Below, piece by piece: positions 2,461 to 54,019 of a stretch of 64,000 bases of DNA; position 1 is the first letter of the stretch, and every line of letters begins with the position of its first letter. The translations under genes and the position numbers were made by a program. Source of the stretch: an uncultured Muribaculaceae bacterium (lineage in GTDB: Bacteria; Bacillota_I; Bacilli_A; RF39; UBA660); assembly GCA_964629735.1 (NCBI GenBank), contig CAZVQX010000001.1, forward strand, positions 86,984 to 150,983. Reading direction: 5' to 3'. Below the pieces are notes generated by a model. The model had not been told where the DNA came from. It saw only the letters and a list, made by a program, of their open reading frames with translations, and did not search any database.

Positions 2461-2537
2461 GGGTGATTAGCTCAGTTGGTTAGAGCACCTGCCTTACAAG
2501 CAGGGGGTCGTAGGTTCGAGTCCTACATCGCCCACCA
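2461..2537 (+). tRNA. tRNA-Val (anticodon TAC)
   Basis: Cloverleaf folded by hand. Acceptor GGGTGAT/ATCGCCC, anticodon loop CTTACAA, encoded CCA. Confidence 0.85.
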
Positions 2538-2538
2538 T

Positions 2539-2614
<76 letters not shown>

Positions 2615-2616
2615 GT

Positions 2617-2700
2617 GGAGGGATAGCGAAGTGGTCAAACGCGGCAGACTGTAAATCTGTTCCTTCGGGTTCGATGGTTCAAATCCATCTCCCTCCACCA
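2617..2700 (+). tRNA. tRNA-Tyr (GTA), class II with long variable arm
   Basis: Acceptor GGAGGGA/TCCCTCC, anticodon loop ACTGTAAA, variable arm TTCCTTCGGGTTC, CCA. Confidence 0.85.
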
Positions 2701-2714
2701 TTAATATTTGACCT

Positions 2715-2789
2715 TGCCTCGTAGCCAAGCGGTAAGGCACCACACTTTGACTGTGGCATGCGCTAGTTCGAATCTAGCCGAGGCAGCCA
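2715..2789 (+). tRNA. tRNA-Gln (TTG)
   Basis: U1-A72 start typical of Gln, D-arm TAGCCAAGCGGTAAGGC, anticodon loop CTTTGAC, CCA. Confidence 0.85.
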
Positions 2790-2797
2790 TTTTATAT

Positions 2798-2873
2798 GTT
2801 CCGTTAGCTCAGTAGGTAGAGCATTTGACTTTTAATCAAAGGGTCACAGGTTCAAATCCTGTACGGGACACCA
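2798..2873 (+). tRNA. tRNA-Lys (TTT)
   Basis: Acceptor GTTCCGT/ACGGGAC, anticodon loop CTTTTAA, CCA. Confidence 0.85.
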
Positions 2874-2878
2874 CTTAT

Positions 2879-2968
2879 GCCTGAGTGGCGGAATAGGTAG
2901 ACGCACAGGACTTAAAATCCTGCGAGACGCAAAATCTCGTGCCGGTTCAATTCCGGCCTTAGGCACCA
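2879..2968 (+). tRNA. tRNA-Leu (TAA), class II
   Basis: Acceptor GCCTGAG/CTTAGGC, anticodon loop CTTAAAA, long variable arm, CCA. Confidence 0.85.
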
Positions 2969-2988
2969 TTTATAATTAATTTTTAGTT

Positions 2989-3079
2989 GGAGAAATACCC
3001 AAGTCTGGCTGAAGGGGTCGGTCTTGAAAACCGAGAGGTCGGAAACGACGCGGGGGTTCAAATCCCTCTTTCTCCGCCA
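2989..3079 (+). tRNA. tRNA-Ser (TGA), class II
   Basis: Acceptor GGAGAAA/TTTCTCC, anticodon loop CTTGAAA, long variable arm, CCA. Confidence 0.85.
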
Positions 3080-3093
3080 TAAAAATTTAACAT

Positions 3094-3170
<77 letters not shown>

Positions 3171-3173
3171 TAA

Positions 3174-3249
3174 GGTCCCGTGGTGTAGCGGTTAACATGT
3201 CTGCCTGTCACGCAGAAGATCGCGAGTTCAATTCTCGTCGGGACCGCCA
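3174..3249 (+). tRNA. tRNA-Asp (GTC)
   Basis: Acceptor GGTCCCG/CGGGACC, anticodon loop CTGTCAC, CCA. Confidence 0.85.
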
Positions 3250-3254
3250 TTGTT

Positions 3255-3330
<76 letters not shown>

Positions 3331-3345
3331 TTAATATTTGAATAT

Positions 3346-3422
3346 GCGCCCGTAGATCAATTGGATAGATCGTTTGACTACGGATCAAAAGGCTATGGGT
3401 TCGACTCCTATCGGGCGCGCCA
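3346..3422 (+). tRNA. tRNA-Arg (ACG)
   Basis: Acceptor GCGCCCG/CGGGCGC, anticodon loop CTACGGA, CCA. Confidence 0.85.
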
Positions 3423-3424
3423 TT

Positions 3425-3501
3425 CGGGAAATAGCACAACTTGGTAGTGCACTTGGTTTGGGACCAAGGGGTTGCAGGTTCAAATCCTGTTTTCCCGACC
3501 A
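3425..3501 (+). tRNA. tRNA-Pro (TGG)
   Basis: C1-G72, acceptor CGGGAAA/TTTCCCG, anticodon loop TTTGGGA, CCA. Confidence 0.85.
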
Positions 3502-3506
3502 TCTTT

Positions 3507-3583
3507 GGGGAATTAGCTCAGTTGGCTAGAGTACCTGTTTTGCACGCAGGGGGTCAAGGGTTCAAGTCCCTTATTCTCCACCA
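3507..3583 (+). tRNA. tRNA-Ala (TGC)
   Basis: G3:U70 identity pair, anticodon loop TTTGCAC, CCA. Confidence 0.85.
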
Positions 3584-3929: not shown

Positions 3930-4032
3930 CAAACGGCACTCACATGATAGTTACTAACATAAAATGTTAAAATTATTATATGGGTGCTTTTTTTAAAATA
4001 ATTTATTTAGAATAAACCAAATGAGGTGTGTT

Positions 4033-4731
4033 ATGATTAACTTTATAGTTTGTGATGATAATGAGTTGATTCTTAAACAAGTAAATGAAATTATAGATAA
4101 TGTGATGATGAAAAATAAGTTATCATATAAAAAACATTTTTTTACCGATTATGATAATGATTTTTTGAAATTGATGAGGTCTAAAATGTCTTGTAAAGTA
4201 TATATACTTGATATTGAGACACCAACCTCTTCAGGCATCGACGTCGCGCGTATGATTCGAGAACGTGATTTTTCTAGTGTCATTATATTTTTAACCTCAC
4301 ATCATGAATTGGGTTATACTATTTTAAAGGGTGAATTTTTGTTTTTATCTTTTATAAATAAATATGATAATTATAAAGAAAAGTTAAAGTCTTCAATAGA
4401 AAAAAGTTTAGAAGTATTAAATAAGAGAGAAATAATTAGATTTGAGGATCGTGGAATTTTATATACAATTCCAATAAACGATATTTTATATATAACAAGA
4501 GATACAGTTGAAAGAAAATTAATAATTAAAACTGATAATGTGAAATATGTAATAAGTAAAACATTAACTGAAATGTTAGATATTTTGGGTAGTGATTTTA
4601 AACAGACACATCGTTCATGTATAATCAACACAAAAAGAGTGTCGGTTCTTAGTTATTCTAAAAAATTCATTTTATTTGATACTGGCCTTAAAATTGATTT
4701 AATAAGTTCAAAATACAGGGAAAGGGTCTAA
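4033..4731 (+). CDS. agrA: LytTR-family response regulator (AgrA/ComE-like)
   Basis: N-terminal receiver domain (ILDIETPTSSGIDVARMI, phospho-acceptor Asp) and C-terminal LytTR DNA-binding domain (FEDRGILYTIPINDILYI...QTHRSCIINTKRV). Start at the ATG at 4033 after the GAGGTG RBS. Confidence 0.8.
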   Translation: MINFIVCDDNELILKQVNEIIDNVMMKNKLSYKKHFFTDYDNDFLKLMRSKMSCKVYILDIETPTSSGIDVARMIRERDFSSVIIFLTSHHELGYTILKGEFLFLSFINKYDNYKEKLKSSIEKSLEVLNKREIIRFEDRGILYTIPINDILYITRDTVERKLIIKTDNVKYVISKTLTEMLDILGSDFKQTHRSCIINTKRVSVLSYSKKFILFDTGLKIDLISSKYRERV

Positions 4732-4735
4732 TGAT

Positions 4736-6025
4736 ATGGAGTTTGTAGTATCTGGAATAATAACAACTTTATCTTTTTTTTATGTTCAATCAAAATTAAT
4801 TAATGAGAAAATAAATTATAAGTCTATAATATTTTATATTGTTTTATTTTTTAGTACTGCTACCTTATTATTCACTTATGATTTAACTCAACATTATATT
4901 AAAATTTTATTAAATTTCACTATTTTAGTAATAAGTTGTTATATATTGTATAGAAAAAGCATTGTAAAAACATTTCTTGTGACTTTATTGACATTTATAT
5001 TATTATTTTTGGCTGAATTTTTATTTGTAATAGGTTTATCAATAACTTTAAATATAAGTATAGAACAACTTGATTTTAATTTAGGTAGTACAATTATTCC
5101 AAATATAATTATAAGTTTAATTTTAATATTAATTGTAAATATTAGAGGTGTGTTTTTAGCCTTGAAGAATATAATCAATAATTTTACAAACTATGAAAAT
5201 AAAACTTTTTTTTTAACGGGTATATATATTGTCTTTTTATATTCCCTTTTCTTTTATAGTCTTTATTTTAATGTGCACATGAAGATTTTTGTTTTGTTAT
5301 CTTTGTTTTTAATTATATTTTTAACAATATTATTATTAAAAATTTTTTTGGAAAAAAAGTATAACAAATCTTTAGAATCAGAATATAAAATGTTGATTGA
5401 TAATCTAAGTGAGTATGAAAAATTTTTGGAAGATTATCGACTGAAAAATCATGAAAATAACAATGATTTAATAATTTTACGAGAAATGGTCATCAATAAT
5501 AATGAAGCAGTAAAATATATAGATAATATATTAAATATTAAACCAAATGAAGATAAAGAATTATTATATAAGACCAAAAGAATTCCAACGGGCGGTTTGC
5601 AAGGATTATTTTACCAGAAATTATTAACTATAAAAACAAAATCGATACATTATCATTTGGAAGTTAGTAAAAAAATTCAACCCGAACAATTTAAAAAATT
5701 AGATAATTTTTCAAAACAAACTATTTGCAAAATTTCTGGTATATTGTTAGATAATGCAATTGAGGCAGTTGAAAATTTAGAACAAAAATATATAAGTTTA
5801 TATATTTATAATGAAAATGATTACTTTGTTATTTCAATTTCAAATAACTTCACTAACTGTATAGAAATAGACAAAATTGATAGCAAAACTTATTCTAGTA
5901 AAGGTAATAATCGTGGTTATGGTCTTAGTCTAGTTAAAAATATTGTTTCAAAGAATAGAAATATAAAACTTGAACGCGAATTTATTGGTGATATATTTAA
6001 ACAAAAAATAAAGTTAAAAATGTAG
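4736..6025 (+). CDS. agrC: AgrC/ComD-type (HPK10) membrane histidine kinase
   Basis: Six or seven N-terminal transmembrane helices. C-terminal GHKL ATPase with N-box (LLDNAIEA) and G-box (KGNNRGYGLSLVKNIV). Immediately downstream of the LytTR regulator. Confidence 0.75.
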   Translation: MEFVVSGIITTLSFFYVQSKLINEKINYKSIIFYIVLFFSTATLLFTYDLTQHYIKILLNFTILVISCYILYRKSIVKTFLVTLLTFILLFLAEFLFVIGLSITLNISIEQLDFNLGSTIIPNIIISLILILIVNIRGVFLALKNIINNFTNYENKTFFLTGIYIVFLYSLFFYSLYFNVHMKIFVLLSLFLIIFLTILLLKIFLEKKYNKSLESEYKMLIDNLSEYEKFLEDYRLKNHENNNDLIILREMVINNNEAVKYIDNILNIKPNEDKELLYKTKRIPTGGLQGLFYQKLLTIKTKSIHYHLEVSKKIQPEQFKKLDNFSKQTICKISGILLDNAIEAVENLEQKYISLYIYNENDYFVISISNNFTNCIEIDKIDSKTYSSKGNNRGYGLSLVKNIVSKNRNIKLEREFIGDIFKQKIKLKM

Positions 6026-6042
6026 ATTCCTCTACATTTTTT
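6021..6042. terminator. Bidirectional terminator shared by convergent agrC and agrD
   Basis: TGTAGA-TTCC-TCTACA hairpin flanked by T-runs on both strands. The agrC stop codon lies inside the stem. Confidence 0.55.
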
Positions 6043-6046
6043 AATA

Positions 6047-6169
6047 CTACTTTATTAAACTTTTTGGTGTTTTAGGTTCATCCATCCATAAAATTATACA
6101 AGCTGTACTAATTGAATTTGCAACTATTAATCCTAAATTAGCAATTAAGGCTGTTATAATTTTTTTCAT
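6047..6169 (-). CDS. agrD: AgrD-like autoinducing-peptide precursor (40 aa: MKKIITALIANLGLIVANSISTACIILWMDEPKTPKSLIK)
   Basis: Hand-translated small ORF absent from the ORF track. Perfect AGGAGG RBS 6 nt upstream. Amphipathic N-terminal leader, a single Cys in a hydrophobic core (ACIILWM), and an acidic/Pro tail (DEPKTPKSL) resembling the Listeria YEPKSP and S. aureus DEVEVPKEL recognition tails. Lies directly downstream of agrB. Confidence 0.6.
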   Translation of the reverse strand: MKKIITALIANLGLIVANSISTACIILWMDEPKTPKSLIK

Positions 6170-6782
6170 CTAATCCCTCCTTTTCTTTAATATATTTTTT
6201 ATAATTATTATAAGGTAGTTTAAAAAGGCTATAAACAAAAGGTGATATTAAAAGGCTTTGTATAAATAATGAGAAAATTATACAATTTGTAATAAAATTA
6301 TTTGTAATAAAAATAGTAGTAAAAGATAATATAATAACAATAATAGTTGAAGAGAATTTATATAATTTTCTTCTTTTTTTATTAATTATTGGTTTTTTAT
6401 ATGTATCTGCAGGTGAATTTTTAAAAAATAAAATAATAAATATTATATTCAAAAAAATTGTGCTAAAAATATCAAATACAATAAAGTTAGCAATGTATGA
6501 AAAGGTTAGAAAAACAAATGCAGATACAATAAGACAAATATGACTTTTGGTGGCATGTAGTCCAAATGAAAACATTCTAATAAAATTATAAAAAAGTAAT
6601 AAAATAATTAATTCTTCTAAAATACCTATAAAATAAGCAATACTAAAAATGATAAATGTTTTAGTAATTAATAAATAAATCCCCTCTAAACCATATTTTA
6701 TCTGTGATAATTTTTCATTATTATAATCTGGGTGATATGTTTTTATATATGAAATTAAAAAACTTAAAAACTTATCTTTCAT
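6138..6782 (-). CDS. agrB: AgrB-family membrane endopeptidase (AIP propeptide processing/export)
   Basis: Polytopic membrane protein containing FIRMFSFGLHATKSHICLIVSA, aligning to S. aureus AgrB [21 protein letters not shown] with the catalytic His and Cys conserved. Its 3' end overlaps the agrD start by 32 nt. Confidence 0.75.
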   Translation of the reverse strand: MKDKFLSFLISYIKTYHPDYNNEKLSQIKYGLEGIYLLITKTFIIFSIAYFIGILEELIILLLFYNFIRMFSFGLHATKSHICLIVSAFVFLTFSYIANFIVFDIFSTIFLNIIFIILFFKNSPADTYKKPIINKKRRKLYKFSSTIIVIILSFTTIFITNNFITNCIIFSLFIQSLLISPFVYSLFKLPYNNYKKYIKEKEGLDEKNYNSLNC

Positions 6783-7349: not shown

Positions 7350-7877
7350 GTGAAGTTTAATATCAGAGGTGATAAGCTTACTGTAACTGAGCCAATAAGA
7401 GAATACATTTATGATAAAATTGGTCGTTTAGAAAAATATTTAGAGAATTCTGAAAACCTAACAGCCAATGTGTTAATAAAAGTTAGAGGTATAAATCAAA
7501 TTGTGGAAGTTACGATTCCTTTGAAAAAAATAATGTTAAGGGCGGAAGAAAGTCATAAGGATTTGTATGCCGCAATAGATCTAGTTAGTGAAAAATTAGA
7601 GCGTCAAATAAGAAAAAATAAAACGAAAATGAAAAAAATAAATAAAGAAGTTTTAAAAGAATTACAAACTAATTATGAAAATGATGAGGATACAAACGAT
7701 TATAAGGTTATAAGAAGAAAAGAGATTGAAATGAAACCGATGAGCGAAGAGGAAGCAATTTTACAAATGAACTTACTTGATCATGACTTTTTTATTTATA
7801 AAGATGCAGAAACCAGTAGTGTTTGTGTATTATATAAAAGAAAAGATAATAATTATGGTGTAATAAAAACTAATTAA
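7350..7877 (+). CDS. hpf: Ribosome hibernation-promoting factor, long form (HPF/YvyD)
   Basis: N-terminal S30AE domain and C-terminal dimerisation domain (AILQMNLLDHDFFIYKD). GTG start after an AGGAGG RBS. Lies upstream of secA as in B. subtilis. Confidence 0.85.
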   Translation: MKFNIRGDKLTVTEPIREYIYDKIGRLEKYLENSENLTANVLIKVRGINQIVEVTIPLKKIMLRAEESHKDLYAAIDLVSEKLERQIRKNKTKMKKINKEVLKELQTNYENDEDTNDYKVIRRKEIEMKPMSEEEAILQMNLLDHDFFIYKDAETSSVCVLYKRKDNNYGVIKTN

Positions 7878-8011: not shown

Positions 8012-10504
8012 ATGAAGTTTTTAAGGCGGATATTTGATTATGAATATAAAGAAATGCAAAAATTTTATAAAATAGCCGATGAAATAGAAAAACTAGATAA
8101 TGTTATGAGTCGTCTTAGTGATGAAGAATTAAAAAATAAAACCTTTGAATTTAAAGAACGTTTAAATAATGGTGAAACTCTAGAGGATATAAAAGTAGAA
8201 GCTTTTGCGGTAGTTCGTGAAGCAGCATATCGAGTAATAGGTGAAAAACCTTATTATGTTCAAATCGTTGGTGGTTTAGCAATTCACTATGGAAATATAG
8301 CTGAAATGAAAACAGGTGAGGGTAAAACATTAACTTCAACTATGCCTGCTTATCTAAATGCTTTAACTGGAAAAGGAGTTCATATAATAACCGTTAATGA
8401 TTATTTGGCTAGCCGTGATGCTGATTGGATGGGAAATATATATCGCTTTTTAGGTTTGAAAGTAGGCGTTAATAATCGAGATTTAACATCACAAGAAAAA
8501 CAAGAGGCTTATAATGCTGATATTTTATATTCTACAAATAACGAAATTGGTTTTGATTATTTAAGAGATAATATGGTTGTTCGTAAAGAAGACCGAGTTC
8601 AACGTGAACTTAATTTTGTTATAATAGATGAAGTTGATTCAGTTTTAATTGATGAAGCACGTACACCTTTAATTATATCCGGTGGTTATTTACATTCGGC
8701 CAATTTATATAAACAAGCTGATCGATTTGTAAAAACATTAACAGAAGATAATGGTTATATTTATGATGAAAAAACAAAAGCAGTTGCTCTTGATACTAAA
8801 GGAATTGAATTAGCTGAAAAAAGTTTTGGTTTAAAAAATTTGTTTGACTTAAATAATACAACAATTGTTCATTATATTAATCAGGCCTTGCGTGCCAATT
8901 ACGCAATGAAAAGAGATTTTGATTATGTAGTCGAAAATGGAAAAGTTGTAATTGTTGATCAATTTACTGGAAGATTGATGCATGGACGAAATTATTCAGA
9001 TGGTTTACATCAAGCTATTGAAGCAAAAGAAAATGTTGAAATAGGTGAAGAAACTAAAACGTTGGCAACTATCACATTCCAAAATTTATTTAGAATGTAT
9101 AAAAAAATAGCTGGTATGACTGGTACTGCTAAAACTGAAGAAGAGGAATTTCGCGAAATATATAATATGTATGTTATAACTATTCCGACTAATAAAGAAG
9201 TAATTCGAGATGATTTAGTTGATTTAATGTTTGGTAATCAAAATGCTAAATACCGTGCTATTATTCAAGAAATAAAAAGAAGACATAATACTGGTCAACC
9301 AATTCTTGTTGGTACGATTGCTGTAGAGACTAGTGAATTAATTAGTTCAATGTTACGTAAAGAGGGAATACCCCATGAAGTTTTAAATGCTAAAAATCAT
9401 GCTCGCGAAGCTGAAATAATTGCAAAAGCAGGTCATAAAGGTTCAGTAACTATTGCAACTAATATGGCCGGCCGTGGAACTGATATAAAATTAACAGATG
9501 AAGTAAAAAAAATGGGTGGATTATGTGTTTTAGGGACAGAAAGACATGAATCTCGCCGAATTGATAATCAGTTAAGAGGTCGTTCTGGTCGTCAAGGAGA
9601 TCCCGGTATATCACAATTTTATGTATCATTTGAAGATGAATTAATGGTTCGGTTTGGTACTGAAAAAGCGCGTGATTTATTAGAAAAATTTGGTTTTGAT
9701 GAGGATGTTCCTATTCGTCATTCAATGTTTGGAAAAATGGTTGAAACAGCACAAAGAAGAGTTGAAGGTAATAACTTTGATATTAGAAAAACTCTATTAC
9801 AATATGATGATGTTGTTAATCAACAGAGAATGATAATTTATGAAAAACGAAATGAAATATTAGATAGCGATACTATTTATGATTCATTATTAAATAATTT
9901 TATAAATTATGTAGAAGATTTAGTTTTAAGCCATTTGGTTGATTCCAGCGAATTAACTGAAACTGATTTATCTGAAATATTAGAAGCAGTTAACACCAAA
10001 TTGTTAAAACAACCTATTAAAATCGAAGAAATAAGAAATAAAAAAGATGAAGAAATTATTGAATTGTTGTATGAGAAAATATCAAATGAATATGAAGATA
10101 AAGTTAATAATATTCCAAATGAAATAAGACAAGAGTTTGAAAAAGCAATATCACTTCGTGTCATTGATACATATTGGATGGAACATATTAATACAATGGA
10201 GCATTTAAAAGAAGGAATACACTTGAGAGGATATGCACAAGAGGATCCTTTAAGAGCTTATACAAAAGAAGGTTATGAAATTTTCGATAATCTTTTAAGC
10301 GTTATAGATAGGGAAACAACTGTTTATTTATTAAATGCAGAAATAAGACAAAATATCGAGAGAAAAAAAGTAGTTGATTCAGAAATTACAAATGAAGCTG
10401 ATAATACAGCTAAAAGAACCCCAAAAAAGGTAAATAAAGTTGGCCGAAATGAGCCTTGTCCTTGTGGAAGTGGACAAAAGTATAAAAATTGTTGTGGAAA
10501 GTAG
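8012..10504 (+). CDS. secA: Preprotein translocase ATPase SecA
   Basis: 830 aa. Walker A MKTGEGKTL, DEAD-like motor, and a C-terminal zinc finger CPCGSGQKYKNCCGK. Confidence 0.97.
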   Translation: MKFLRRIFDYEYKEMQKFYKIADEIEKLDNVMSRLSDEELKNKTFEFKERLNNGETLEDIKVEAFAVVREAAYRVIGEKPYYVQIVGGLAIHYGNIAEMKTGEGKTLTSTMPAYLNALTGKGVHIITVNDYLASRDADWMGNIYRFLGLKVGVNNRDLTSQEKQEAYNADILYSTNNEIGFDYLRDNMVVRKEDRVQRELNFVIIDEVDSVLIDEARTPLIISGGYLHSANLYKQADRFVKTLTEDNGYIYDEKTKAVALDTKGIELAEKSFGLKNLFDLNNTTIVHYINQALRANYAMKRDFDYVVENGKVVIVDQFTGRLMHGRNYSDGLHQAIEAKENVEIGEETKTLATITFQNLFRMYKKIAGMTGTAKTEEEEFREIYNMYVITIPTNKEVIRDDLVDLMFGNQNAKYRAIIQEIKRRHNTGQPILVGTIAVETSELISSMLRKEGIPHEVLNAKNHAREAEIIAKAGHKGSVTIATNMAGRGTDIKLTDEVKKMGGLCVLGTERHESRRIDNQLRGRSGRQGDPGISQFYVSFEDELMVRFGTEKARDLLEKFGFDEDVPIRHSMFGKMVETAQRRVEGNNFDIRKTLLQYDDVVNQQRMIIYEKRNEILDSDTIYDSLLNNFINYVEDLVLSHLVDSSELTETDLSEILEAVNTKLLKQPIKIEEIRNKKDEEIIELLYEKISNEYEDKVNNIPNEIRQEFEKAISLRVIDTYWMEHINTMEHLKEGIHLRGYAQEDPLRAYTKEGYEIFDNLLSVIDRETTVYLLNAEIRQNIERKKVVDSEITNEADNTAKRTPKKVNKVGRNEPCPCGSGQKYKNCCGK

Positions 10505-10512
10505 GGATTTTA

Positions 10513-11328
10513 ATGAATGAAATGAAAAAAATGAAAAGAGTATTATTGATTGTAATTGGAGTTATTGTATTTGTGCCTGTTGCAATGTATGCAAAATATT
10601 TAAAAGGTGAGAAAATTATTGAAGGAGTTAATGCTATTTTTGGTAATGATAAAATTAATTTAGTATATATAGGTAGTAGAAATTGTGGGCATTGTGAAAA
10701 TTTTAACCCAGTAATAGAATCAGCTTCCAAAGAATACGATTTTGAATATTATTATATTGATATAATGAATTTAACAGATGGTCAATTTGATAGATTAATG
10801 AAAAAATTTTCGATTGACCCTAGTAGTTTTGGAACCCCATATATTTCAGTAATTGAAAAAGGTAAAAAAGTTAATGAGAAAAAAGGCTATGTTGAAAGAG
10901 AAGATTTATTAGTATTTTTACAAGAAAATAAAATGGTTAGTGAAGATATAAAAATTGAAAGAAGTGATGATGCGTTAACTATAATAAATGTTGATAAATA
11001 TTTTGAATTATTAAAAAGCAATGTTAATACAGTTATAGTTTATGCTAGTTCTTCATGCCCAGCATGTATATATGCAAAACCAATAATAAATGAAGTAGCA
11101 AAAGAAACCGGTGCAGTGATTAATTATTTAGAATTAGATAAAATAGAAGACGAAGAAAAATATAAAGCTCTTATTAAATCTATAGAAGATTTGAATATTG
11201 ATGTTGAAGAGTTTGGGACCCCAACTCTAATTATTGTTAATGATAGTAAAAAAATTGATATACAAATTGGTGCTTTAACAAAAGAAGAATATGTAAAAGT
11301 TTTTAAACAACATAATATTATAAAATAG
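10513..11328 (+). CDS. Membrane-anchored protein with two thioredoxin-like domains (CGHC and CPAC)
   Basis: N-terminal transmembrane helix, then two paralogous Trx-fold modules (LVYIGSRNCGHCENF...FGTPYISVIEKG and VIVYASSSCPACIYA...FGTPTLIIVND). Start at the ATG at 10513. Confidence 0.55.
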   Translation: MNEMKKMKRVLLIVIGVIVFVPVAMYAKYLKGEKIIEGVNAIFGNDKINLVYIGSRNCGHCENFNPVIESASKEYDFEYYYIDIMNLTDGQFDRLMKKFSIDPSSFGTPYISVIEKGKKVNEKKGYVEREDLLVFLQENKMVSEDIKIERSDDALTIINVDKYFELLKSNVNTVIVYASSSCPACIYAKPIINEVAKETGAVINYLELDKIEDEEKYKALIKSIEDLNIDVEEFGTPTLIIVNDSKKIDIQIGALTKEEYVKVFKQHNIIK

Positions 11329-11340
11329 GGGGAAAATAAA

Positions 11341-11796
11341 ATGACAAGTGAAGTTTATAACAAGGTAAGAGAATTTAAAAATAAATATCCTTTTACAATT
11401 TCTTGGCGATTAAAAGCTCATTCCAAAATAATTGATAAACACTTAAATGAAGGTGAATATATTAAATATGCTTTTGCCGCCCAAAAAAATGATAATAATT
11501 TTGATATTATTTCAACTTATGTTATAGCACTTAGTAATAAAAGAATATTATTAGGACAGAAAAGGTTGTTTTTTGGCTATTTTTTTACAGCTATTACTCC
11601 TGATATGTTTAATGATCTAAAAGTTAGAATGGGGATTATATGGGGAAAAATAGAAATTGATACTATTAAAGAACAGTTTATTTTATCAAATATTCAAAAA
11701 AAAGCATTGGCGGAGATTGAAACAAATGTTACTGAGTATATGATGAGAGAAAAACGTCGCTTTTATCAAAGTAGGGATAACGAAAATCAAAAATAG
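11341..11796 (+). CDS. Hypothetical protein, bacterial PH-domain (bPH_2/YdbT-like) candidate
   Basis: 151-aa ORF. Weak resemblance only. Confidence 0.3.
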   Translation: MTSEVYNKVREFKNKYPFTISWRLKAHSKIIDKHLNEGEYIKYAFAAQKNDNNFDIISTYVIALSNKRILLGQKRLFFGYFFTAITPDMFNDLKVRMGIIWGKIEIDTIKEQFILSNIQKKALAEIETNVTEYMMREKRRFYQSRDNENQK

Positions 11797-11835
11797 ATAT
11801 TAAAAATTTTTTATATCTATATAAGGAGTGATTTT

Positions 11836-13113
11836 ATGAAAAGATTGTTTATGATGTTAGTAACTTTATTTGTTATTTATTTTATGATTCAAATTGGTTT
11901 TAATTATTTTGGAAAAGGTCATGATGTTAATTATAATATAAAATCCGATAATGTCTTTTTTGAAATAAATGAAAAATATATTAATAATACAAAAGGTGAA
12001 AAAGATAGTTACCATTTTAAAATAAAGTTTAAAGATAGTGAGATTGTCTTTCAAACTTACGAAAATTTTTCTAATAATGAAAAAATTATTCAAAAAATAG
12101 AATATTTTGAGGATGAAAAATATAAATGTATATTACCTGTATTTGTAACAAATAAAGTTATATTTGATATTTTATGTCTTGATAATGATAATCTTAGGTA
12201 TTATCACGATATAATAGGTGAATCACCAAAATTAGATGACTTTGCTAAAAAACTATCACATTATAATTTGGAATCATATTATATTGATAATAAAAATAAT
12301 AAAACAATAAATAATACAATTACTATTTTTGATGATAATATTTTGAATAATCACTTTATTTCTTTTACAAATTATAAAGGATTATCCACTATAAATAATT
12401 TAAATTTCAAAAAACTTCATAATATTAAGTTATTTAAAAATGATGTTTATAAAAGAGAGGTAGAAGCATTCTTAAATCAGTATTATATTGTTGCTGATTA
12501 TAATCAAGAGCATGAATATAACAATATATTTATTGTTAATATTATGGATAATAAGGTAATTAGTATTAAATCACATCAAAAGATTAGTTTTGAGTCTTAT
12601 ATTCAAGGTATAGTTGATAATAAAATATATTTAGTTGACACCAAAAACAAAAGACAATATAAAATTGATGTTAAAAAAGAAATAATTTTAGAAATTGGGA
12701 ATGAAGATACCGGTGCTTTAGTATACGTCGGTAATAAATTTAATCGTGTAAACATAAATGAAATAATATCAAAAAAATATTTATTTAACGATCAAATTGA
12801 AATAACTTCGGATGAAAAATATTTTAAAATTAACACAACAAATTATACTAATACTGGATACACTTATTTCTATCAAAAAAACAATAAACTAATTGATGTT
12901 TATAGAGCACCTAATATTAGCAAGAATAAAAAGACATATTTATTTTCGGTAGATAAAACTAATAATATTAACTATATTGACGATTATATATACTTCGAGG
13001 ATGGAAATTTGGTAAAATATTATCACGATAAAACAGGACTCAGAACTTTATTTAAAAATGATGAATATGATTTTAATAAAAATTTAAAATTTTGGGTATA
13101 TATAAAAAAATAA
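11836..13113 (+). CDS. Hypothetical membrane-anchored extracytoplasmic protein (425 aa; Asn/Lys/Tyr-rich)
   Basis: N-terminal signal/transmembrane segment (LFMMLVTLFVIYFMIQIGF). No recognisable domain. Confidence 0.3.
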   Translation: MKRLFMMLVTLFVIYFMIQIGFNYFGKGHDVNYNIKSDNVFFEINEKYINNTKGEKDSYHFKIKFKDSEIVFQTYENFSNNEKIIQKIEYFEDEKYKCILPVFVTNKVIFDILCLDNDNLRYYHDIIGESPKLDDFAKKLSHYNLESYYIDNKNNKTINNTITIFDDNILNNHFISFTNYKGLSTINNLNFKKLHNIKLFKNDVYKREVEAFLNQYYIVADYNQEHEYNNIFIVNIMDNKVISIKSHQKISFESYIQGIVDNKIYLVDTKNKRQYKIDVKKEIILEIGNEDTGALVYVGNKFNRVNINEIISKKYLFNDQIEITSDEKYFKINTTNYTNTGYTYFYQKNNKLIDVYRAPNISKNKKTYLFSVDKTNNINYIDDYIYFEDGNLVKYYHDKTGLRTLFKNDEYDFNKNLKFWVYIKK

Positions 13114-13147
13114 CAATAAAAGGTTTTTATACATATAATATACCGAG

Positions 13148-13624
13148 GTGAAATATATGTATAAAATATATACGGTTAAAAATTCAGATACAATAATTTC
13201 AATTGCAAATAAGTTACGAATTACCCCTGATGAACTGCGTAAAATAAATGGTTTCCCAAGAAGTTATGAAGTAAAAGTTGGAGAACAAATAATAATACCA
13301 TCAGTAAGGGTAGAGCCTTTTGATGTATATATTGTAAAAAAAGGTGATACGTTGTATGGAATTGCACAATTGTATAAGTTAAGAGTCGATGATTTAGCCA
13401 AGTTAAATGGGATAGAAAAAGATGATTATCTTTATCCTGGTCAAGAGTTAATAATTCCTAAAGAAAATATATCGTTTTATATAACAAAAGATGGTGATAC
13501 AATTCGTACAGTTGCTTTAGAATTGAAAGCAACACCAGCTGAATTGATAGTAGAGAATGAATTAATCTATTTATTACCAAACCAATTGATAATTTATTCA
13601 AAAACAACAACAAATAAGGAGTAA
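13148..13624 (+). CDS. Protein with three LysM peptidoglycan-binding repeats
   Basis: Three repeats of the LysM signature (YTVKNSDTIISIANKL..., YIVKKGDTLYGIAQLY..., YITKDGDTIRTVALEL...). Confidence 0.7.
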   Translation: MKYMYKIYTVKNSDTIISIANKLRITPDELRKINGFPRSYEVKVGEQIIIPSVRVEPFDVYIVKKGDTLYGIAQLYKLRVDDLAKLNGIEKDDYLYPGQELIIPKENISFYITKDGDTIRTVALELKATPAELIVENELIYLLPNQLIIYSKTTTNKE

Positions 13625-13709
13625 TATTTACTCTTTTTTTGATTAAATGTTTTTATGTCTTTTTTTTTTTTAATATATATTATATAATTAAATAGGAGGA
13701 TTGTATAAT

Positions 13710-14120
13710 ATGAAAAAATTAACAGTAATATTATTATTAATAATTTTAATGGTAGGTTGTTCTTATAAAAAACCTTATATAGAAATTAAATATGATGAAT
13801 TTACAAATAAATTGGAAAATAAAGAATCTTTTATTTTTTACATAGGATCATCAACTTGTTCTTTTTGTGATAGATATGATGTAGCTTTAAAAAAAGTTGT
13901 TGATAAATATGAAGTTGAAGTTTATTATATAGATACAAATCTTAAAAAAATAGGTAAGGATAATTATAAAAATTTATCAAATATAATTAATTTTAGTGGT
14001 ACGCCACATACTGTTTTTATTAAAGATGGTGAAATTAGTTCTAGTTATAATTCTATCGAGGGTGCCGTAAGTTCTGAAAAAATAATAGAAGCTTTTAAGA
14101 GAAATGGTTATATAAAATAG
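13710..14120 (+). CDS. Thioredoxin-like lipoprotein (CSFC active site)
   Basis: Lipobox LMVGC. FIFYIGSSTCSFCDRYD...FSGTPHTVFIKDG is paralogous to the two domains of the 10513 gene. ATG at 13710 lies 10 nt after AGGAGG; the track start at 13701 is TTG. Confidence 0.55.
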   Translation: MKKLTVILLLIILMVGCSYKKPYIEIKYDEFTNKLENKESFIFYIGSSTCSFCDRYDVALKKVVDKYEVEVYYIDTNLKKIGKDNYKNLSNIINFSGTPHTVFIKDGEISSSYNSIEGAVSSEKIIEAFKRNGYIK

Positions 14121-14144
14121 TAAAAGAGAGGAAATGTTAAATTA

Positions 14145-15149
14145 ATGGAAAGAATAGAAATTTTTAATGACGATATTTTTGAAGAAAATAACAACATTAC
14201 TAATAATATAAGCGTTATTAATACTTACGGTGAGGTTTTAACTGACAAAAAATATATTACTAATCCTGCTATCGCCCGTGATAGTGAAATAAAAAAATTA
14301 ATTATAATATTATTAACGCCTGAAAAATCTGGTTTATTAGTGGGAAAACCAGGTATTGGTAAAACTGCTATTGTAGAAGGTTTAGCATATTTAATTCAAA
14401 GAGGTGAAGTACCTGATGCCTTAAAAGGGTATAAAATAATAAAAATTAATTCCACATCATTAGTTGGCGTTGTTAATATTGATGGTAGAGAAGAATTATT
14501 AATGAATGTCTTTGTTGATGAAATTAAAAAGTTAGAAAAAACAATTATTTTTATTGATGAAGTTCATACTTTAATTGGTGCTCGTGGTTCTGGCCCAATG
14601 GATTTAGCCAATATGTTAAAACCTGCATTGGATCGAGGTGATGTCAAAGCAATAGGCGCAACTACTACAATTGAATATAATACATATATTATTCGAGATA
14701 GAGCTTTTTTAAGAAGGTTTGAAAAAATAGATGTTTTAGAACCGGACGAAGCAACAACAGTTGATATATTGATGGGGACTATTCCAAAAATTGAGAAACA
14801 GACTGATGTAAAATTTAAATATAATGATTATATTACAAAACAATTAGTTGAATCAATTGTCAGTGCGACTTCTGAGTTTAAAAGAATTTATGGTTTATCT
14901 GCAATGTATCCAGATGTTGCGTTTTCTGTATTAACTCAAGCTTTTTCTCAAGCATTATATCAAAACAAAAAGGAAGTTGATATTGTTGATGTATATAATG
15001 CTATAAAAACAAGTAAAAGGATTTATCCTGACAGTATAATTAAAGAACTAGATGCATTTCGTCAAAAATTTAAAAAATTTCTTGAAGAAGAAAAAATTGC
15101 TTTACCAATTGTAAAACTTGAAGATATAAAAATAGAGGAAATGATATAA
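14145..15149 (+). CDS. Stand-alone Clp/Hsp100 D1-type AAA+ ATPase domain protein
   Basis: LLVGKPGIGKTAIVEGLA (Walker A), IIFIDEVHTLIG (Walker B), sensor and arginine-finger region GATTTIEYNTYIIRDRAFLRRFEKIDVLEP. Collinear with ClpA/ClpB D1, but lacks the N-domain, D2 and the ClpP-binding loop. Confidence 0.6.
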   Translation: MERIEIFNDDIFEENNNITNNISVINTYGEVLTDKKYITNPAIARDSEIKKLIIILLTPEKSGLLVGKPGIGKTAIVEGLAYLIQRGEVPDALKGYKIIKINSTSLVGVVNIDGREELLMNVFVDEIKKLEKTIIFIDEVHTLIGARGSGPMDLANMLKPALDRGDVKAIGATTTIEYNTYIIRDRAFLRRFEKIDVLEPDEATTVDILMGTIPKIEKQTDVKFKYNDYITKQLVESIVSATSEFKRIYGLSAMYPDVAFSVLTQAFSQALYQNKKEVDIVDVYNAIKTSKRIYPDSIIKELDAFRQKFKKFLEEEKIALPIVKLEDIKIEEMI

Positions 15150-15201
15150 ATATAATTATTAAACATATAATTGTATTAATAAAAATGTATGGGGTGATAA
15201 A

Positions 15202-15729
15202 ATGGAAAAAAGAAAAGTTCCTTTTATAAATTATATAATTTTAGGCATAATTGTTATTGTAACAATGATGATTACTTTTAATTTTGCAAATAAGTATAAG
15301 AAAAAGATTGATTCTCTAGAACGGTACTCACCTCTGCATGATATATTATATTTTCTTAAAATAGAAGAATTAGATAATTATTTATTGGAAAATCCAAATA
15401 TCGTTATTTATTTAGTGAGTGATGATATTAATTTTGAAATTAATAATAACATTAAGGAATTAGTTATTAATAATAATTTAAAAGATGATATAATTGCTAT
15501 AGATATCACTAAATTTACTGATCAAGATTTTGATAAGTTAAATAAAAAAATGTCAACAAATTTAACAAAAGAAAACATTAAAATAGAAAATTATTCTAAT
15601 TTTATTATAATAAGGGATAGAAAAATATATGAATTATTATACAAAGATAAGGTAGATATAAGATATAATGATTTATTAGCAAATGATTTATTATGTTTTT
15701 TAAAAAAACATGAGGTAATTGAAGAGTGA
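15202..15729 (+). CDS. Membrane-anchored hypothetical protein; degenerate (Cys-less) paralogue of the neighbouring thioredoxin-like proteins
   Basis: N-terminal transmembrane helix. The IVIYLVSDD...NFIIIRDRKIYELL pattern aligns with the Trx-like modules but carries no CxxC. Confidence 0.3.
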   Translation: MEKRKVPFINYIILGIIVIVTMMITFNFANKYKKKIDSLERYSPLHDILYFLKIEELDNYLLENPNIVIYLVSDDINFEINNNIKELVINNNLKDDIIAIDITKFTDQDFDKLNKKMSTNLTKENIKIENYSNFIIIRDRKIYELLYKDKVDIRYNDLLANDLLCFLKKHEVIEE

Positions 15730-16232
15730 TAAATGTTGTTTTATATGCACCTGAAATTCCTGGTAATACTGGAAATATTATGAGGACATGTGCAGGTACT
15801 GGTGTTAATTTACATTTGATAAAACCATTTGGTTTTTCATTAAGTGAAAAAATGATTAAGCGAAGTGGTGTTAATTATATTGATAAATGTAACTATTACA
15901 TATATGATGATTTTGATGATTTTGTTAGTAAAAATAAAGGTGATTATTATTTTTTAACAAGATATGGTAAAAATAATTATTGTAAGTATAATTATAGTAA
16001 TAAAGAAAAAGATATTTATTTTATTTTTGGTAGCGAAAGTAGTGGTATTCCAAAAAAAATTTTGAAAGCTAATATTGATAAATGTATACGTATTCCCATA
16101 AACAATAATATTAGAGCATTAAATTTAGCTAATTCGGTCAGTGTTATGGTTTTTGAGGCTTTAAGGCAGCAAAATTTTGAACATTTATTAAATAGTGATC
16201 CTTTTAAGGGAGAAGATTATTTAGAAAAATAA
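15726..16232 (+). CDS. trmL: SpoU/TrmL-family tRNA (cytidine/uridine-2'-O)-methyltransferase
   Basis: VVLYAPEIPGNTGNIMRTC...IFGSESSGIP...RIPINNNIRALNLANSVSV, the SPOUT knot motifs. GTG start overlaps the upstream stop. Confidence 0.75.
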   Translation: MINVVLYAPEIPGNTGNIMRTCAGTGVNLHLIKPFGFSLSEKMIKRSGVNYIDKCNYYIYDDFDDFVSKNKGDYYFLTRYGKNNYCKYNYSNKEKDIYFIFGSESSGIPKKILKANIDKCIRIPINNNIRALNLANSVSVMVFEALRQQNFEHLLNSDPFKGEDYLEK

Positions 16233-16299
16233 TAATAAATATTGTCAAAAAAAAATTAAAATGTTATTATATTTATATAAGATAGAGGAGGTTTTAAAT

Positions 16300-16926
16300 G
16301 TGGATTTCATTATAGACAATTATGTTTGGTTTATTGTTGGTGGTGTGTTATTAATTATGGCTGTTATTGGTTATTTTGCAGAAAAAACTAATTTTGGCCG
16401 TAATGAGTTTGAACGAAAGGTAAAAAGGGTTCCAAAAGAAAAAAAAGTAAAGACAAAAAATAAAAAGAGAGAAACGTCAAAATCAAAAAAAGAATCTGAT
16501 ATGGCTATTCAGGAATTGGAAGGTGCCACAGGTGTTACAATAGATGATCAGGATTGGTTTGAACCAATTGAATCAATCGACAGTAATTCACTTAAACCTT
16601 CACTTGAAAAACAAGTAGATGATAATTTAACTAATGCCAGTACGGAAGAATTATTTGATTCGCTAGAAGAAGTTGAACCATTGGATACAGAAGAACTTGA
16701 ACCATTGGTTGCAGAAGAATTTACTATTTCTGATTTAGACAATTTAGAAGAATATAATTCACCATTGATTGAAGAAAAAAAAGAACCTGAGATTATTATC
16801 GAGGATGTTATTGTAGAGGATGACATCGCTGGCGATAATATTATTGATGATCTAAATTCTGAAAATCTACCAAAAATAGAAGATTTAAACAAAAATAACG
16901 AAACAGAAGATGTTTGGAAGTTTTAA
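16300..16926 (+). CDS. Hypothetical membrane-anchored protein with a Lys-rich linker and a highly acidic C-terminal region
   Basis: One transmembrane helix, then KKVKTKNKKRETSKSKK, then an E/D-rich tail. Probable GTG start at 16300, 8 nt after AGGAGG; the track start is 16261. Confidence 0.3.
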   Translation: MDFIIDNYVWFIVGGVLLIMAVIGYFAEKTNFGRNEFERKVKRVPKEKKVKTKNKKRETSKSKKESDMAIQELEGATGVTIDDQDWFEPIESIDSNSLKPSLEKQVDDNLTNASTEELFDSLEEVEPLDTEELEPLVAEEFTISDLDNLEEYNSPLIEEKKEPEIIIEDVIVEDDIAGDNIIDDLNSENLPKIEDLNKNNETEDVWKF

Positions 16927-17884: not shown

Positions 17885-18214
17885 ATGAGTAAAAAGCTAC
17901 CCAAGGTTTTTGTTAATAAAATAGATAAAAAATTAGAGAATAACTCACTTGTTTATTATAGCTATCATGATAATAAACAAAATTTTAGGGAAATAGAAAA
18001 GGAAAAGGATCTTAAGTCTGATATGTCAATCGAGGAAAAAATAATGGCAATTTTTAATTCGCCAAATTATGTATATAAAGCAACAGTAAATATTAAGTTA
18101 GTAGATAAAACTATTACAAAACAAATTGTAGGTAGAAATTTGTTTAATATAATTACTATTGATAATGAATTAATAAAAATTAGTGATATAATTGATATTG
18201 AAATTTCAGAATAA
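17885..18214 (+). CDS. Hypothetical 109-aa protein
   Basis: ORF with AGGAGG RBS. Confidence 0.3.
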   Translation: MSKKLPKVFVNKIDKKLENNSLVYYSYHDNKQNFREIEKEKDLKSDMSIEEKIMAIFNSPNYVYKATVNIKLVDKTITKQIVGRNLFNIITIDNELIKISDIIDIEISE

Positions 18215-18281: not shown

Positions 18282-18716
18282 CTAATCGACATCAACATAT
18301 GTATCTCTTAAACATCTAATTGCGCATATACAATCTAAATTCATAGTGAATATAGAATTGGTAGGCTCATATTTTTTGCCGGGCTTATTGCATGAAACTA
18401 AGACTCTAAAAGTAGCACAGTTGTCACTTATTTTTTCAACCCTAAATACACATGATTTTGGTGATGTACTAGTACAAGAATCGCTTTCTTTAAAAACTGG
18501 CATAGCCCAAGGTGTCCCATTTCCGCAACAAGTATAAATCATTATAGGTCTAGTATTGAAAAAATGACAAGGTTCTAAATCACCAAGAAAAGCTTTATCG
18601 CAACTATCTAAGCATTTATCCGTTTTTTTGCTCTTGCTTTGTAGTAAGCATATAATGGTTAATATTTCTGCAATACAATTATTGTCTTTTGGTTTGTTTT
18701 GACACATAAAATCCAC
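18282..18716 (-). CDS. CotY/CotZ-family cysteine-rich spore coat/exosporium protein
   Basis: Cys-rich, 144 aa. CVFRVEKISDNCATFRVLV and NLDCICAIRCL align with B. subtilis CotZ FFRVERVHGSCATLSLL and VDLDCFCAINCL. Confidence 0.5.
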   Translation of the reverse strand: MDFMCQNKPKDNNCIAEILTIICLLQSKSKKTDKCLDSCDKAFLGDLEPCHFFNTRPIMIYTCCGNGTPWAMPVFKESDSCTSTSPKSCVFRVEKISDNCATFRVLVSCNKPGKKYEPTNSIFTMNLDCICAIRCLRDTYVDVD

Positions 18717-18845
18717 TCCTTACTGTTTTCATTAATAGCATATTCACTATAATATAATCAGTGTGAAAATTTTGCCTACAATTAGAAATTATTATGTATA
18801 TTTATTAACTTTTATTATGATATAATATATTGAGTAGGTGGATTT

Positions 18846-28806: not shown

Positions 28807-29325
28807 ATGAAAAAATATATATTTATTATAATATTAATTATTGTTTCTTACTTTTTTTTAAATTTTGATAATAATATAAAGATACCAGATGAGGCTATTA
28901 GATTAAGAGTGATTGCTAATAGTAATTCTGAATATGATTTAAAAATAAAAGAAAAAGTAAAAAAAGAATTACAAAGTAATATTGTAACCATGTTAAGTAA
29001 TGTAAATGATATAAATGAGGCACGTATAATTATCAATAAAAATATATCTATGCTTGATAATAAAATAAGTAAATTATTAAAGAAAGAAAATTATTTATTA
29101 TCACATAGTTTAAATTATGGACTTAATTATTTTCCAGAAAAGCAATTTAAAGGTATAACTTATAAAGAAGGATATTACGAATCGATTAAAGTTACTCTTG
29201 GTGAAGCGTTAGGTGATAATTGGTGGTGTGTGTTGTTTCCACCCCTATGTTTATTAGAGGCTGAAGAATCAGATGAAATTGAATATAAATTCTTTATAAA
29301 AGAATTTATAAAAAAATATTTTTAG
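28807..29325 (+). CDS. spoIIR: Stage II sporulation protein R (SpoIIR)
   Basis: IRLRVIANSNSEYDLKIK and the hallmark GDNWWCVLFPPLC motif. Confidence 0.75.
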   Translation: MKKYIFIIILIIVSYFFLNFDNNIKIPDEAIRLRVIANSNSEYDLKIKEKVKKELQSNIVTMLSNVNDINEARIIINKNISMLDNKISKLLKKENYLLSHSLNYGLNYFPEKQFKGITYKEGYYESIKVTLGEALGDNWWCVLFPPLCLLEAEESDEIEYKFFIKEFIKKYF

Positions 29326-29358: not shown

Positions 29359-29907
29359 GTGGTTTTTATGTTGATATCAATTTTATTAATTGCAGTAGCA
29401 GTTAGTACTGATGCTTTTTCTCTTGCGTTAATATACGGGACTATAAGAGTTAATCAACATCAGTCCATTTTGTTATCATTAACAACTGGAATATTTCACT
29501 TTTTTTTACCATTGTTAGGCAGTTTATTAGGTAATAATCTAATTGCAATGTTTCATATAGAGATGAAGTTTGTCATAGCGTTCATTTTGTTTATTGTTGG
29601 AATTAGTATGATTAAATCAAAAAATGAGACCGATTGTTTACCTATATCACTATATTTCAGTGAAATGATATTATTTGCTTTAGCGGTTAGTTTTGACAGT
29701 TTATTTGTTGGTGCGGGACTTGATGCACTAAATTATAATAAATTGTTTATTTCTTTAATATTTTTTATTGTTAGTTTTATATTTACCATGTGTGGTATTA
29801 GTTTGGGTGGGAAGATTGAAAAAAGGATCGGCAGGATTGCAACTTTTATTGGTGGGATTATTTTGATACTATTGGGTTTGTACTGGTCTTTTTTTAAAAC
29901 TTTTTAA
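29359..29907 (+). CDS. DUF204/MntP-family membrane protein (YtaF-like)
   Basis: STDAFSLAL motif duplicated (VSFDSLFVGAGL), six transmembrane helices. Confidence 0.5.
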   Translation: MVFMLISILLIAVAVSTDAFSLALIYGTIRVNQHQSILLSLTTGIFHFFLPLLGSLLGNNLIAMFHIEMKFVIAFILFIVGISMIKSKNETDCLPISLYFSEMILFALAVSFDSLFVGAGLDALNYNKLFISLIFFIVSFIFTMCGISLGGKIEKRIGRIATFIGGIILILLGLYWSFFKTF

Positions 29908-54001: not shown

Positions 54002-54019
54002 ATTAAAAGGAGTAATTTC

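Follow-up and report, generated by a model that had tools for sequence, protein, structure and literature searches.

PedC is an accepted thiol-disulfide oxidoreductase; it secures correct disulfides in pediocin and improves the potency that depends on them (PMC4919988). Two streptococcal proteins of the same branch of the thioredoxin superfamily, Bta of Streptococcus pneumoniae and Tlp of S. mutans, have been assigned a role in thiol stress and S-glutathionylation (PMC7410335). Among spore formers, Bacillus subtilis encodes StoA (SpoIVH) and ResA, which are membrane-anchored extracytoplasmic thioredoxin-fold proteins; of the two, StoA is required to build the spore cortex (PMC2665060). How Gram-positive anaerobes handle disulfides outside the cytoplasm is poorly understood, above all in the uncultured small-genome orders RF39, RFN20 and ML615J-28, relatives of Mycoplasmatales; a survey of these orders (PMC10868615) does not mention thioredoxins. 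Here we present an analysis of a 64-kb stretch from an uncultured gut bacterium with a small genome, on contig CAZVQX010000001.1 (assembly GCA_964629735.1, positions 86,984-150,983, forward strand), referred to as the window, in whose numbering all positions are given. Three of its genes, A (10513-11328), E (13710-14120) and G (15202-15729), encode four thioredoxin-fold modules. A and E are ordinary new members of the known PedC/BrcD-like branch, probably acting as extracytoplasmic oxidoreductases or isomerases; G appears to be their non-catalytic paralogue and belongs to a widespread family of its own, whose gene almost always stands between a lone ClpB-NBD1-like AAA+ gene and trmL.

Gene A (+ strand, 271 amino acids (aa)) encodes two PedC-like thioredoxin modules behind an N-terminal segment that is either a signal anchor or a cleavable signal peptide. 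The protein matches the Pfam family Thioredoxin (PF00085) in two stretches, with an E-value of 5.5e-14 and 52.5 bits against a cut-off of 23.5, which confirms the two modules that the initial annotation of this DNA had placed behind an anchor. Module A1 (approximately residues 31-145) carries the motif CGHC (C58/C61, nucleotides (nt) 10684-10695) and module A2 (approximately residues 146-271) carries CPAC (C182/C185, nt 11056-11067), each with a GTP cis-Pro loop. Both CxxC motifs and both loops are invariant among orthologues, with the intervening residues varying in A1 (CGHC, CGYC, CSFC, CTYC, CSYC) and in A2 (CPAC, CGYC, CGAC, CAYC, CMYC). Gene E (+ strand, 136 aa) is, as had been described, a lipoprotein (lipobox LMVG-C17) with a single PedC-like module, bearing CSFC (C50/C53, nt 13857-13868) and an SGTP loop; it exceeds the cut-offs of Thioredoxin_2 (PF13098; 29.0 bits, cut-off 27, E = 1.4e-6) and of PF00085 (25.3 bits, cut-off 23.5). 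Both the lipobox Cys17 and the CxxC are kept by 10/10 orthologues of E, the latter reading CSFC, CKYC, CQYC, CSHC or CTHC. The ATG starts at 10513 and 13710 are backed by orthologue N-termini that read MNE[ST]KK... and MKK..., respectively, and the positions of all three thioredoxin-fold open reading frames (ORFs) match those given originally. The catalytic signature, a CxxC at the N-terminus of helix alpha-2 together with a cis-Pro loop, is found in A1, A2 and E and is absent from G.

The best curated family for both catalytic proteins is TIGR01295 (PedC/BrcD), with 58.9 bits (E = 5.1e-16) for A and 43.7 bits (E = 2.5e-11) for E. The closest solved structure by sequence is 1ZMA, that of pneumococcal Bta, which is the best match of E in the Protein Data Bank (9.3e-5). 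Profile comparison thus assigns the modules to the PedC/BrcD-like branch, annotated as “bacteriocin transport accessory protein” and represented by PF20207/DUF6568 and 1ZMA. The likeness extends to architecture, in that G and E share with PedC and BrcD an N-terminal anchor followed by a single thioredoxin domain (~170 aa), and to the pattern [FY][IV]G..C..C...Y[IL]D...GTP, present in A1 and E. The locus differs from PedC and BrcD in the tandem arrangement of A, in the lack of a CxxC in G and in the absence of a bacteriocin operon. It also differs from Bta and from S. mutans Tlp (SMU_1788c), which are 118-residue proteins with CPYC and no evident anchor, whereas A, E and G are membrane-tethered. 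The initial annotation had compared the modules with StoA/ResA-type oxidoreductases, and this comparison fails: neither the Redoxin/AhpC-TSA models nor the NCBIfam StoA model matches A, E or G at E<=1, so that A and E are not of the TlpA/ResA/StoA type, and they carry CX[H/Y/F]C or CxAC motifs where ResA and StoA have CxPC. A DsbA-type identity for A or E was likewise rejected; PF01323 reaches 21.1 bits (cut-off 25.6), for A only, and there is no helical insertion domain, for which modules of ~115 aa leave no room.

Gene G (+ strand, 175 aa) encodes an N-in transmembrane (TM) anchor and a Cys-less thioredoxin-fold domain. On its own it has no Pfam or NCBIfam match, and neither the window copy nor any of its 10 orthologues contains a CxxC. 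An AlphaFold2 (AF2) model built from a nine-sequence alignment, with a mean predicted local distance difference test score (pLDDT) of 82, shows a beta-alpha-beta-alpha-beta-alpha-beta-beta-alpha domain behind a long TM helix. When a profile of the nine sequences was searched against 1.84 billion representatives, 751 proteins (counted as cluster representatives) were recovered at E<=1e-3 and 488 at E<=1e-10; among the 150 matches listed, almost all are 150-185 aa long and nearly all are aligned over their full length. Of 155 family sequences examined, 87 contain no cysteine at all and a single one (P0116) retains a CxxC, CQTC, at the catalytic-site position. The cis-Pro is kept in ~66% of the family and is replaced by Ser in the window copy. 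Conserved instead are the motif IPxKNY in the short cytoplasmic tail and EL.NY..ENP in helix alpha-1 (EELDNYLLENP in the window).

The connection of this family to PedC is made through PF20207, a model of 164 positions with a cut-off of 27.1 bits, called DUF6568 in the Pfam copy used and “PedC-like” in newer releases. Four relatives of G (P0007, P0009, P0116 and P0159) match it at 78-87 bits (~1e-22) over positions 1-163, including the TM segment, and a fifth (P0005) at 30.7 bits; the window copy, P0002 and P0003 give no match, and the placement of the window copy rests on the family alignment. TIGR01295 also matches relatives of G weakly (P0116, 30.0 bits; P0159, 22.9 bits). The Cys-less membrane-anchored PedC-like family is already in Pfam, as DUF6568; no paper on DUF6568 was found in the library searched. 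Because the family has at least 751 members and only one of the 155 sequences examined has a CxxC at the catalytic position, its sequences indicate a stable and ancient Cys-less lineage, derived from a catalytic PedC-like ancestor, and not a decaying copy; the original description of G as a degenerate member is not borne out. G appears to be the PedC architecture, anchor plus thioredoxin domain, without the active site, and with both cysteines lost it cannot do redox chemistry. Non-catalytic thioredoxin-fold domains are also known from the b/b' domains of protein disulfide isomerase (PDI), ERp29/Wind, calsequestrin and TMX2, but these are eukaryotic and have no detectable sequence relationship to G; furthermore, PDI modules are fused in one chain, whereas those described here lie on separate genes.

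The four modules are related to each other. Pairwise blastp gave 1e-10 for A1-A2, 6e-10 for A1-E, 6e-6 for A2-G, 6e-5 for A1-G and 0.18 for E-G, values that were obtained without composition correction on K/N/I-rich proteins and were not relied on alone. Alignments of families with hhalign gave probabilities of 99.6% for A1-A2, 99.3% for E-A2 and 99.1% for E-A1, and of 97.7% for G-E (P 2.5e-12), 94.9% for G-A1 and 91.7% for G-A2; also, a hidden Markov model (HMM) of 152 G-family sequences matches E at 2.6e-11 and no other six-frame ORF of the window. Profile searches thus place all modules in the thioredoxin fold, by Pfam for A and E and by family HMM and hhalign for G, which bears out G as a related module without cysteines. 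The motif that had been proposed as common to all of them, beginning [IV]YIGS..C..C, is exact for A1 and E and looser in A2 (VYASSSC...NYLELD...FGTP); it is essentially lost in G, which retains only the hydrophobic beta-strands. Nor is the paralogue family a tight one, as had been stated: the paralogues are old and share 20-26% identity. Four family HMMs detected no further thioredoxin module in the six-frame ORFs of the 64 kb.

The anchors or lipobox of the three proteins, together with the positive-inside rule, support the proposed extracytoplasmic, membrane-anchored location of the modules. The N-terminus of A is hydrophobic after MNE[ST]KK, and some orthologues have an AxA site and hence a possibly cleaved signal peptide; the modules of A are predicted to be exported in either case. 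For G-family members the net charge is +2.5 over the ten residues that precede the TM segment and +0.6 over the fifteen that follow it, which favours an N-in, domain-out orientation.

To place the genes in context, species-representative genomes were scanned with the G alignment. The cluster was found at ten loci (given L numbers in the scan) in metagenome-assembled genomes (MAGs) labelled Bacilli bacterium, Mollicutes bacterium, Candidatus Pelethosoma merdigallinarum and uncultured Muribaculaceae bacterium (two loci); one related contig (JBAMOY010000001.1) is a 1.2-Mb circle. An eleventh match, to an Acidobacteriota genome, is weak (L017, E = 3e-4) and lies outside any such cluster. As far as each contig extends, the genes follow one another as A-B-C-D-E-F-G-TrmL-I, L007, L015 and L016 being examples, and this holds at protein identities of no more than 33-53% for A and 25-45% for G. 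More distant loci separate its parts. A-B occurs without the rest of the cluster in L004, and D-E-F-G without A-B-C in L012, L018 and L020-L022; L022 and L020 keep a core of LysM gene, PedC-like lipoprotein, AAA gene, G and TrmL, and reduced forms are AAA-G-TrmL (L018, L021) and G-TrmL (L019). TrmL adjoins G in 15/16 G-bearing loci, L009 being the exception. What had been taken for a single cluster is, on this comparison, a pair of conserved blocks, A-B-C and D-E-F-G-TrmL, which lie side by side in this sub-clade. An apparent fusion of C to the LysM gene in L008 was rejected as an artefact of an N-run in the scaffold. In relatives, the gap between secA and A holds unrelated, mobile-looking insertions of RhuM-like, amidase-like and helix-turn-helix genes (L004 8790-9800, L015 2692-4772, L016 1350-5244), and the position behind secA resembles a hot spot for insertion.

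All genes of the cluster lie on the + strand, in DNA of ~25% G+C. It follows hpf (7350-7877, +) and secA (8012-10504, +); the latter, as originally noted, directly precedes A, ending 8 nt 5' of it, and the gaps between the following genes are short. A generic promoter scan was uninformative in 25% G+C DNA (108 sites against 98 expected), and conservation across orthologous loci was used. An extended -10 element, TGnTA(T/A)AAT, is conserved 5' of A (L004, L007, L015) and of G (L014-L016, L018, L019), in the latter with TTGAAA at 17 nt, and upstream of E a T-run followed by T.TTATATAAT is conserved in 10/10 loci. No G+C-rich terminator was found inside the cluster; at the 3' end of D, between D and E, there is a terminator-like hairpin (13616-13640, +) with a 9-bp stem and a U-run (RNA fold -12.7 kcal/mol, z -2.95). 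D itself is preceded by a -10-like element, CATA[TA]A.T[AG], 4-9 nt before the ribosome-binding site in 9/9 loci (window nt ~13129-13137), for a background of ~0.5 CATAnnnTA per kb per strand in the window. Upstream of cotZ (18717-18800) lies TTCACAC-N17-ATATGCTA or CATATATTA; the window, L020 and L021 share the form TTCACAC-N17-(A/C)ATAnnnTA, which is similar to a sigma-K promoter. CATA-type -10 elements are typical of the B. subtilis mother-cell factors sigma-E and sigma-K, and the mother-cell LysM proteins SafA and SpoVID lack a signal peptide, as D does. From the CATA-type elements, and for D also from the missing signal peptide, we infer that D and cotZ are sporulation genes, and that A, E-F and G-trmL would be served by housekeeping, sigma-A-type promoters.

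On gene content the organism is an endospore former, though relatives are labelled “Mollicutes bacterium”, because the window encodes SpoIIR (28807-29325), a Ger-type spore germination permease (29869-30987, - strand) and a CotZ-like Cys-rich coat protein (18282-18716, - strand, Pfam E = 3.7e-17). The spore-forming host and the downstream coat gene of the initial annotation are both supported by these genes. The permease gene is followed by two further minus-strand ORFs (region to 33642). In L018, L020 and L021, as in the window, G and CotZ are no more than 2-3 kb apart.

Gene F (14145-15149, +, 334 aa), the orphan AAA+ gene noted at the outset, is indeed a stand-alone AAA+ module and is perhaps the region's most interesting gene. 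It is equivalent to nucleotide-binding domain 1 (NBD1) of ClpB, ClpA and ClpC, aligning with ClpB residues 177-447, including the small subdomain. Unlike these proteins it has no N-domain, M-domain or NBD2, and it scores far below the family cut-offs (TIGR02639 ClpA: 2.1e-52, 178 bits, cut-off 993). Its identity is at least 66%, and mostly above 70%, over the 120 best clusters, in which Walker A is kept in 110, Walker B in 109 and the RR fingers in 112; sensor-1 is also conserved. In pore loop 1, KYR is changed to NID and no aromatic residue occurs at the site across the family, so that F has neither the full Hsp100/Clp architecture nor the aromatic pore loop. A SpoVK-type identity was rejected for want of such an NCBIfam match. 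F is translationally coupled to E, and the coupling of E and F is seen in all loci.

Of the remaining neighbours, gene C (11836-13113, +, 425 aa) encodes an N-terminal TM anchor and a beta-rich extracytoplasmic region without a Pfam or NCBIfam family. Its sequence is conserved in the clade (37-45% identity), and precisely two cysteines, C98 and C114, are invariant (5/5 orthologues). A single-sequence AF2 model was unusable (pLDDT 39), and a predicted hairpin register is the sole hint to the geometry of the C98-C114 pair. Because C is membrane-anchored, is encoded between A and E and has two invariant cysteines, it is a candidate disulfide substrate. Gene B (11341-11796, +, 151 aa) encodes a bacterial PH domain (bPH_3, Pfam 9.1e-10) without a TM segment and is tightly coupled to A, with a spacing of -18 to +12 nt in all loci. 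Gene D (13157-13624, +, 155 aa; Pfam LysM 5.2e-31) is the triple-LysM protein previously reported; its third repeat is degenerate, and a signal peptide is absent. Translation probably starts at ATG 13157 and not at GTG 13148, as orthologues begin MYKIY... directly in LysM1. Gene H (15726-16232, +, 168 aa), which overlaps the stop codon of G by 4 nt, is TrmL, a tRNA 2'-O-methyltransferase (TIGR00185: 1.1e-53, 181.2 bits, just under the equivalog cut-off of 190.6). Gene I (16261-16926, +, 221 aa) lies directly 3' of trmL in most related loci; its product has a single TM segment and a lysine-rich stretch, ends in a long acidic tail of low complexity and could be placed in no family.

We favour, with moderate confidence, an explanation in which A and E act on exported proteins as extracytoplasmic PedC/BrcD-like thiol-disulfide oxidoreductases or isomerases, with G as a paralogue that has no catalytic role. 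A would be held at the outer face of the cytoplasmic membrane by its signal anchor and E by its lipid anchor. Enzymes with a histidine or aromatic residue before the second cysteine, such as PDI (CGHC) and DsbA (CPHC), are oxidising or isomerising; those with a proline at this position, such as thioredoxin (CGPC), ResA (CEPC) and StoA (CPPC), are reductants. Since A and E have CX[H/Y/F]C-type dipeptides and not CxPC, they would introduce or shuffle disulfides in proteins leaving the Sec channel, rather than reduce them, and C, with its Cys98/Cys114 pair, would be a candidate client. The conserved sigma-A-type promoters suggest that A, E and G are expressed vegetatively, as housekeeping genes. 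For G, the most likely function would be that of a binding or scaffold module, like b/b' of PDI, ERp29 or TMX2-type proteins, and the close and ancient association of its gene with that of the pore-loop-less F and with trmL suggests a role that has diverged from those of A and E.

Several observations weigh against this explanation. The TIGR01295 equivalog cut-off of 120 bits is not reached by A or E, and G does not match the model. No DsbB/BdbC/VKOR and no CcdA/DsbD-type donor was seen among the window ORFs scanned, which are a part of the total in 64 kb of the genome, and the organism appears to be a strict anaerobe, as judged from a desulfoferrodoxin (superoxide reductase) gene at 59292-59666 (+), which leaves no obvious oxidant for a Dsb-like pathway. 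The soluble, apparently cytoplasmic members of the branch, S. mutans Tlp and pneumococcal Bta, act in thiol stress (PMC7410335), so that belonging to this family does not determine which way the chemistry runs. Promoter footprints in DNA of 22-25% G+C are weak evidence. Finally, A, E and G lie in separate transcription units and A-B-C stands apart from D-E-F-G in distant relatives, and they may therefore not form one system.

That last point leads to the alternative that there is no common system at all, and that A, E and G are old paralogues whose functions have nothing to do with each other, and which are still syntenic only because they lie in a slowly rearranging region near ribosomal-protein operons. 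The separate promoters, the hairpin after D, the occurrence of A-B without E-G and of D-E-F-G without A-B-C, and the merely 20-26% identity of the paralogues are all as this alternative would have it; the persistence of the full order through to gene I at protein identities as low as 33-53% (A) and 25-45% (G), and the coupling of E to F everywhere, are not, and we regard it as possible, though less probable than the oxidoreductase reading. A reductive pathway of the StoA/ResA kind, specific to sporulation, placed in the forespore intermembrane space and required for cortex or coat assembly, would agree with the SpoIIR, Ger permease and CotZ genes, with the closeness of cotZ to G also in four distant loci, with the sigma-E/K-like element before the signal-less LysM gene that lies between thioredoxin genes, and with the cortex requirement for StoA, a membrane-anchored protein of the same fold (PMC2665060). 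It is unlikely, given that A, E and G match no Redoxin/AhpC-TSA or StoA model, that the dipeptides are not CxPC, that sigma-A-type promoters are conserved 5' of all three genes, that G is co-transcribed with the housekeeping gene trmL and A follows secA, and that no ccdA was seen nearby. The sporulation-specific role proposed for the thioredoxin genes thus has no direct support, and the case for a spore-cortex role is circumstantial.

PedC in the strict sense offers a further alternative, in which the proteins would serve a secreted bacteriocin, or a secreted signalling peptide, as accessory disulfide isomerases. PedC/BrcD is the best-scoring curated family, and an agr-like locus (4021-6782) lies 4-6 kb upstream, with a LytTR regulator (4021-4731), a GHKL kinase (4736-6025) and AgrB on the opposite strand (6138-6782). 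However, no bacteriocin precursor, immunity gene or C39-ABC transporter adjoins A, E or G, and no precursor with a dedicated ABC exporter was found among the neighbours within ~10 kb or in related loci. The TIGR01295 scores are far under the equivalog cut-off; secA, trmL, the LysM gene and the AAA+ gene are conserved chromosomal neighbours across many MAGs, unlike mobile bacteriocin loci; and a tblastn search of E against 72,556 plasmids gave no match. We consider this alternative very unlikely.

A bolder reading concerns the ancient, nearly invariant gene pair F and G, whose products could form a trans-membrane module in which cytoplasmic F docks on the G tail (R-x-I-P-x-K-N-Y). ATP hydrolysis inside would then be coupled to the chaperoning or assembly of envelope or spore-surface proteins outside, and the catalytic lipoprotein E, co-translated with F, would act alongside. 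We put this forward as a long shot. If true, this would be a new type of energised folding machinery outside the cytoplasm, in spore-forming Bacilli with reduced genomes.

Irrespective of that proposal, a genome of roughly 1.2 Mb retains three catalytic PedC-like modules and one Cys-less one; together with the locking of a widespread Cys-less form beside a highly conserved single-ring AAA+ protein, this points to an important, unstudied envelope function. As far as we found, the fixed link of G to a pore-loop-less single-ring AAA+ gene and trmL in spore-forming small-genome Bacilli has no prior description. Nothing known is overturned by these findings; the DUF6568/PedC-like family gains a concrete genomic context with nameable clients and partners.

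Some minor features of the window complete the picture. Downstream of gene I a VCA0040-like membrane protein is also encoded, and a small ORF at 17885-18214 has a weak CotO-like match (E = 5.5e-4) below the cut-off. An array of 13 tRNA genes (2461-3580, +) explains a local rise in G+C to 0.39. Just past the ribosomal-protein operons, three ORFs of 111, 244 and 100 aa (52813-54665, G+C 0.23) are without a Pfam family, and a truncated ABC-ATPase fragment lies at 55019-55318.

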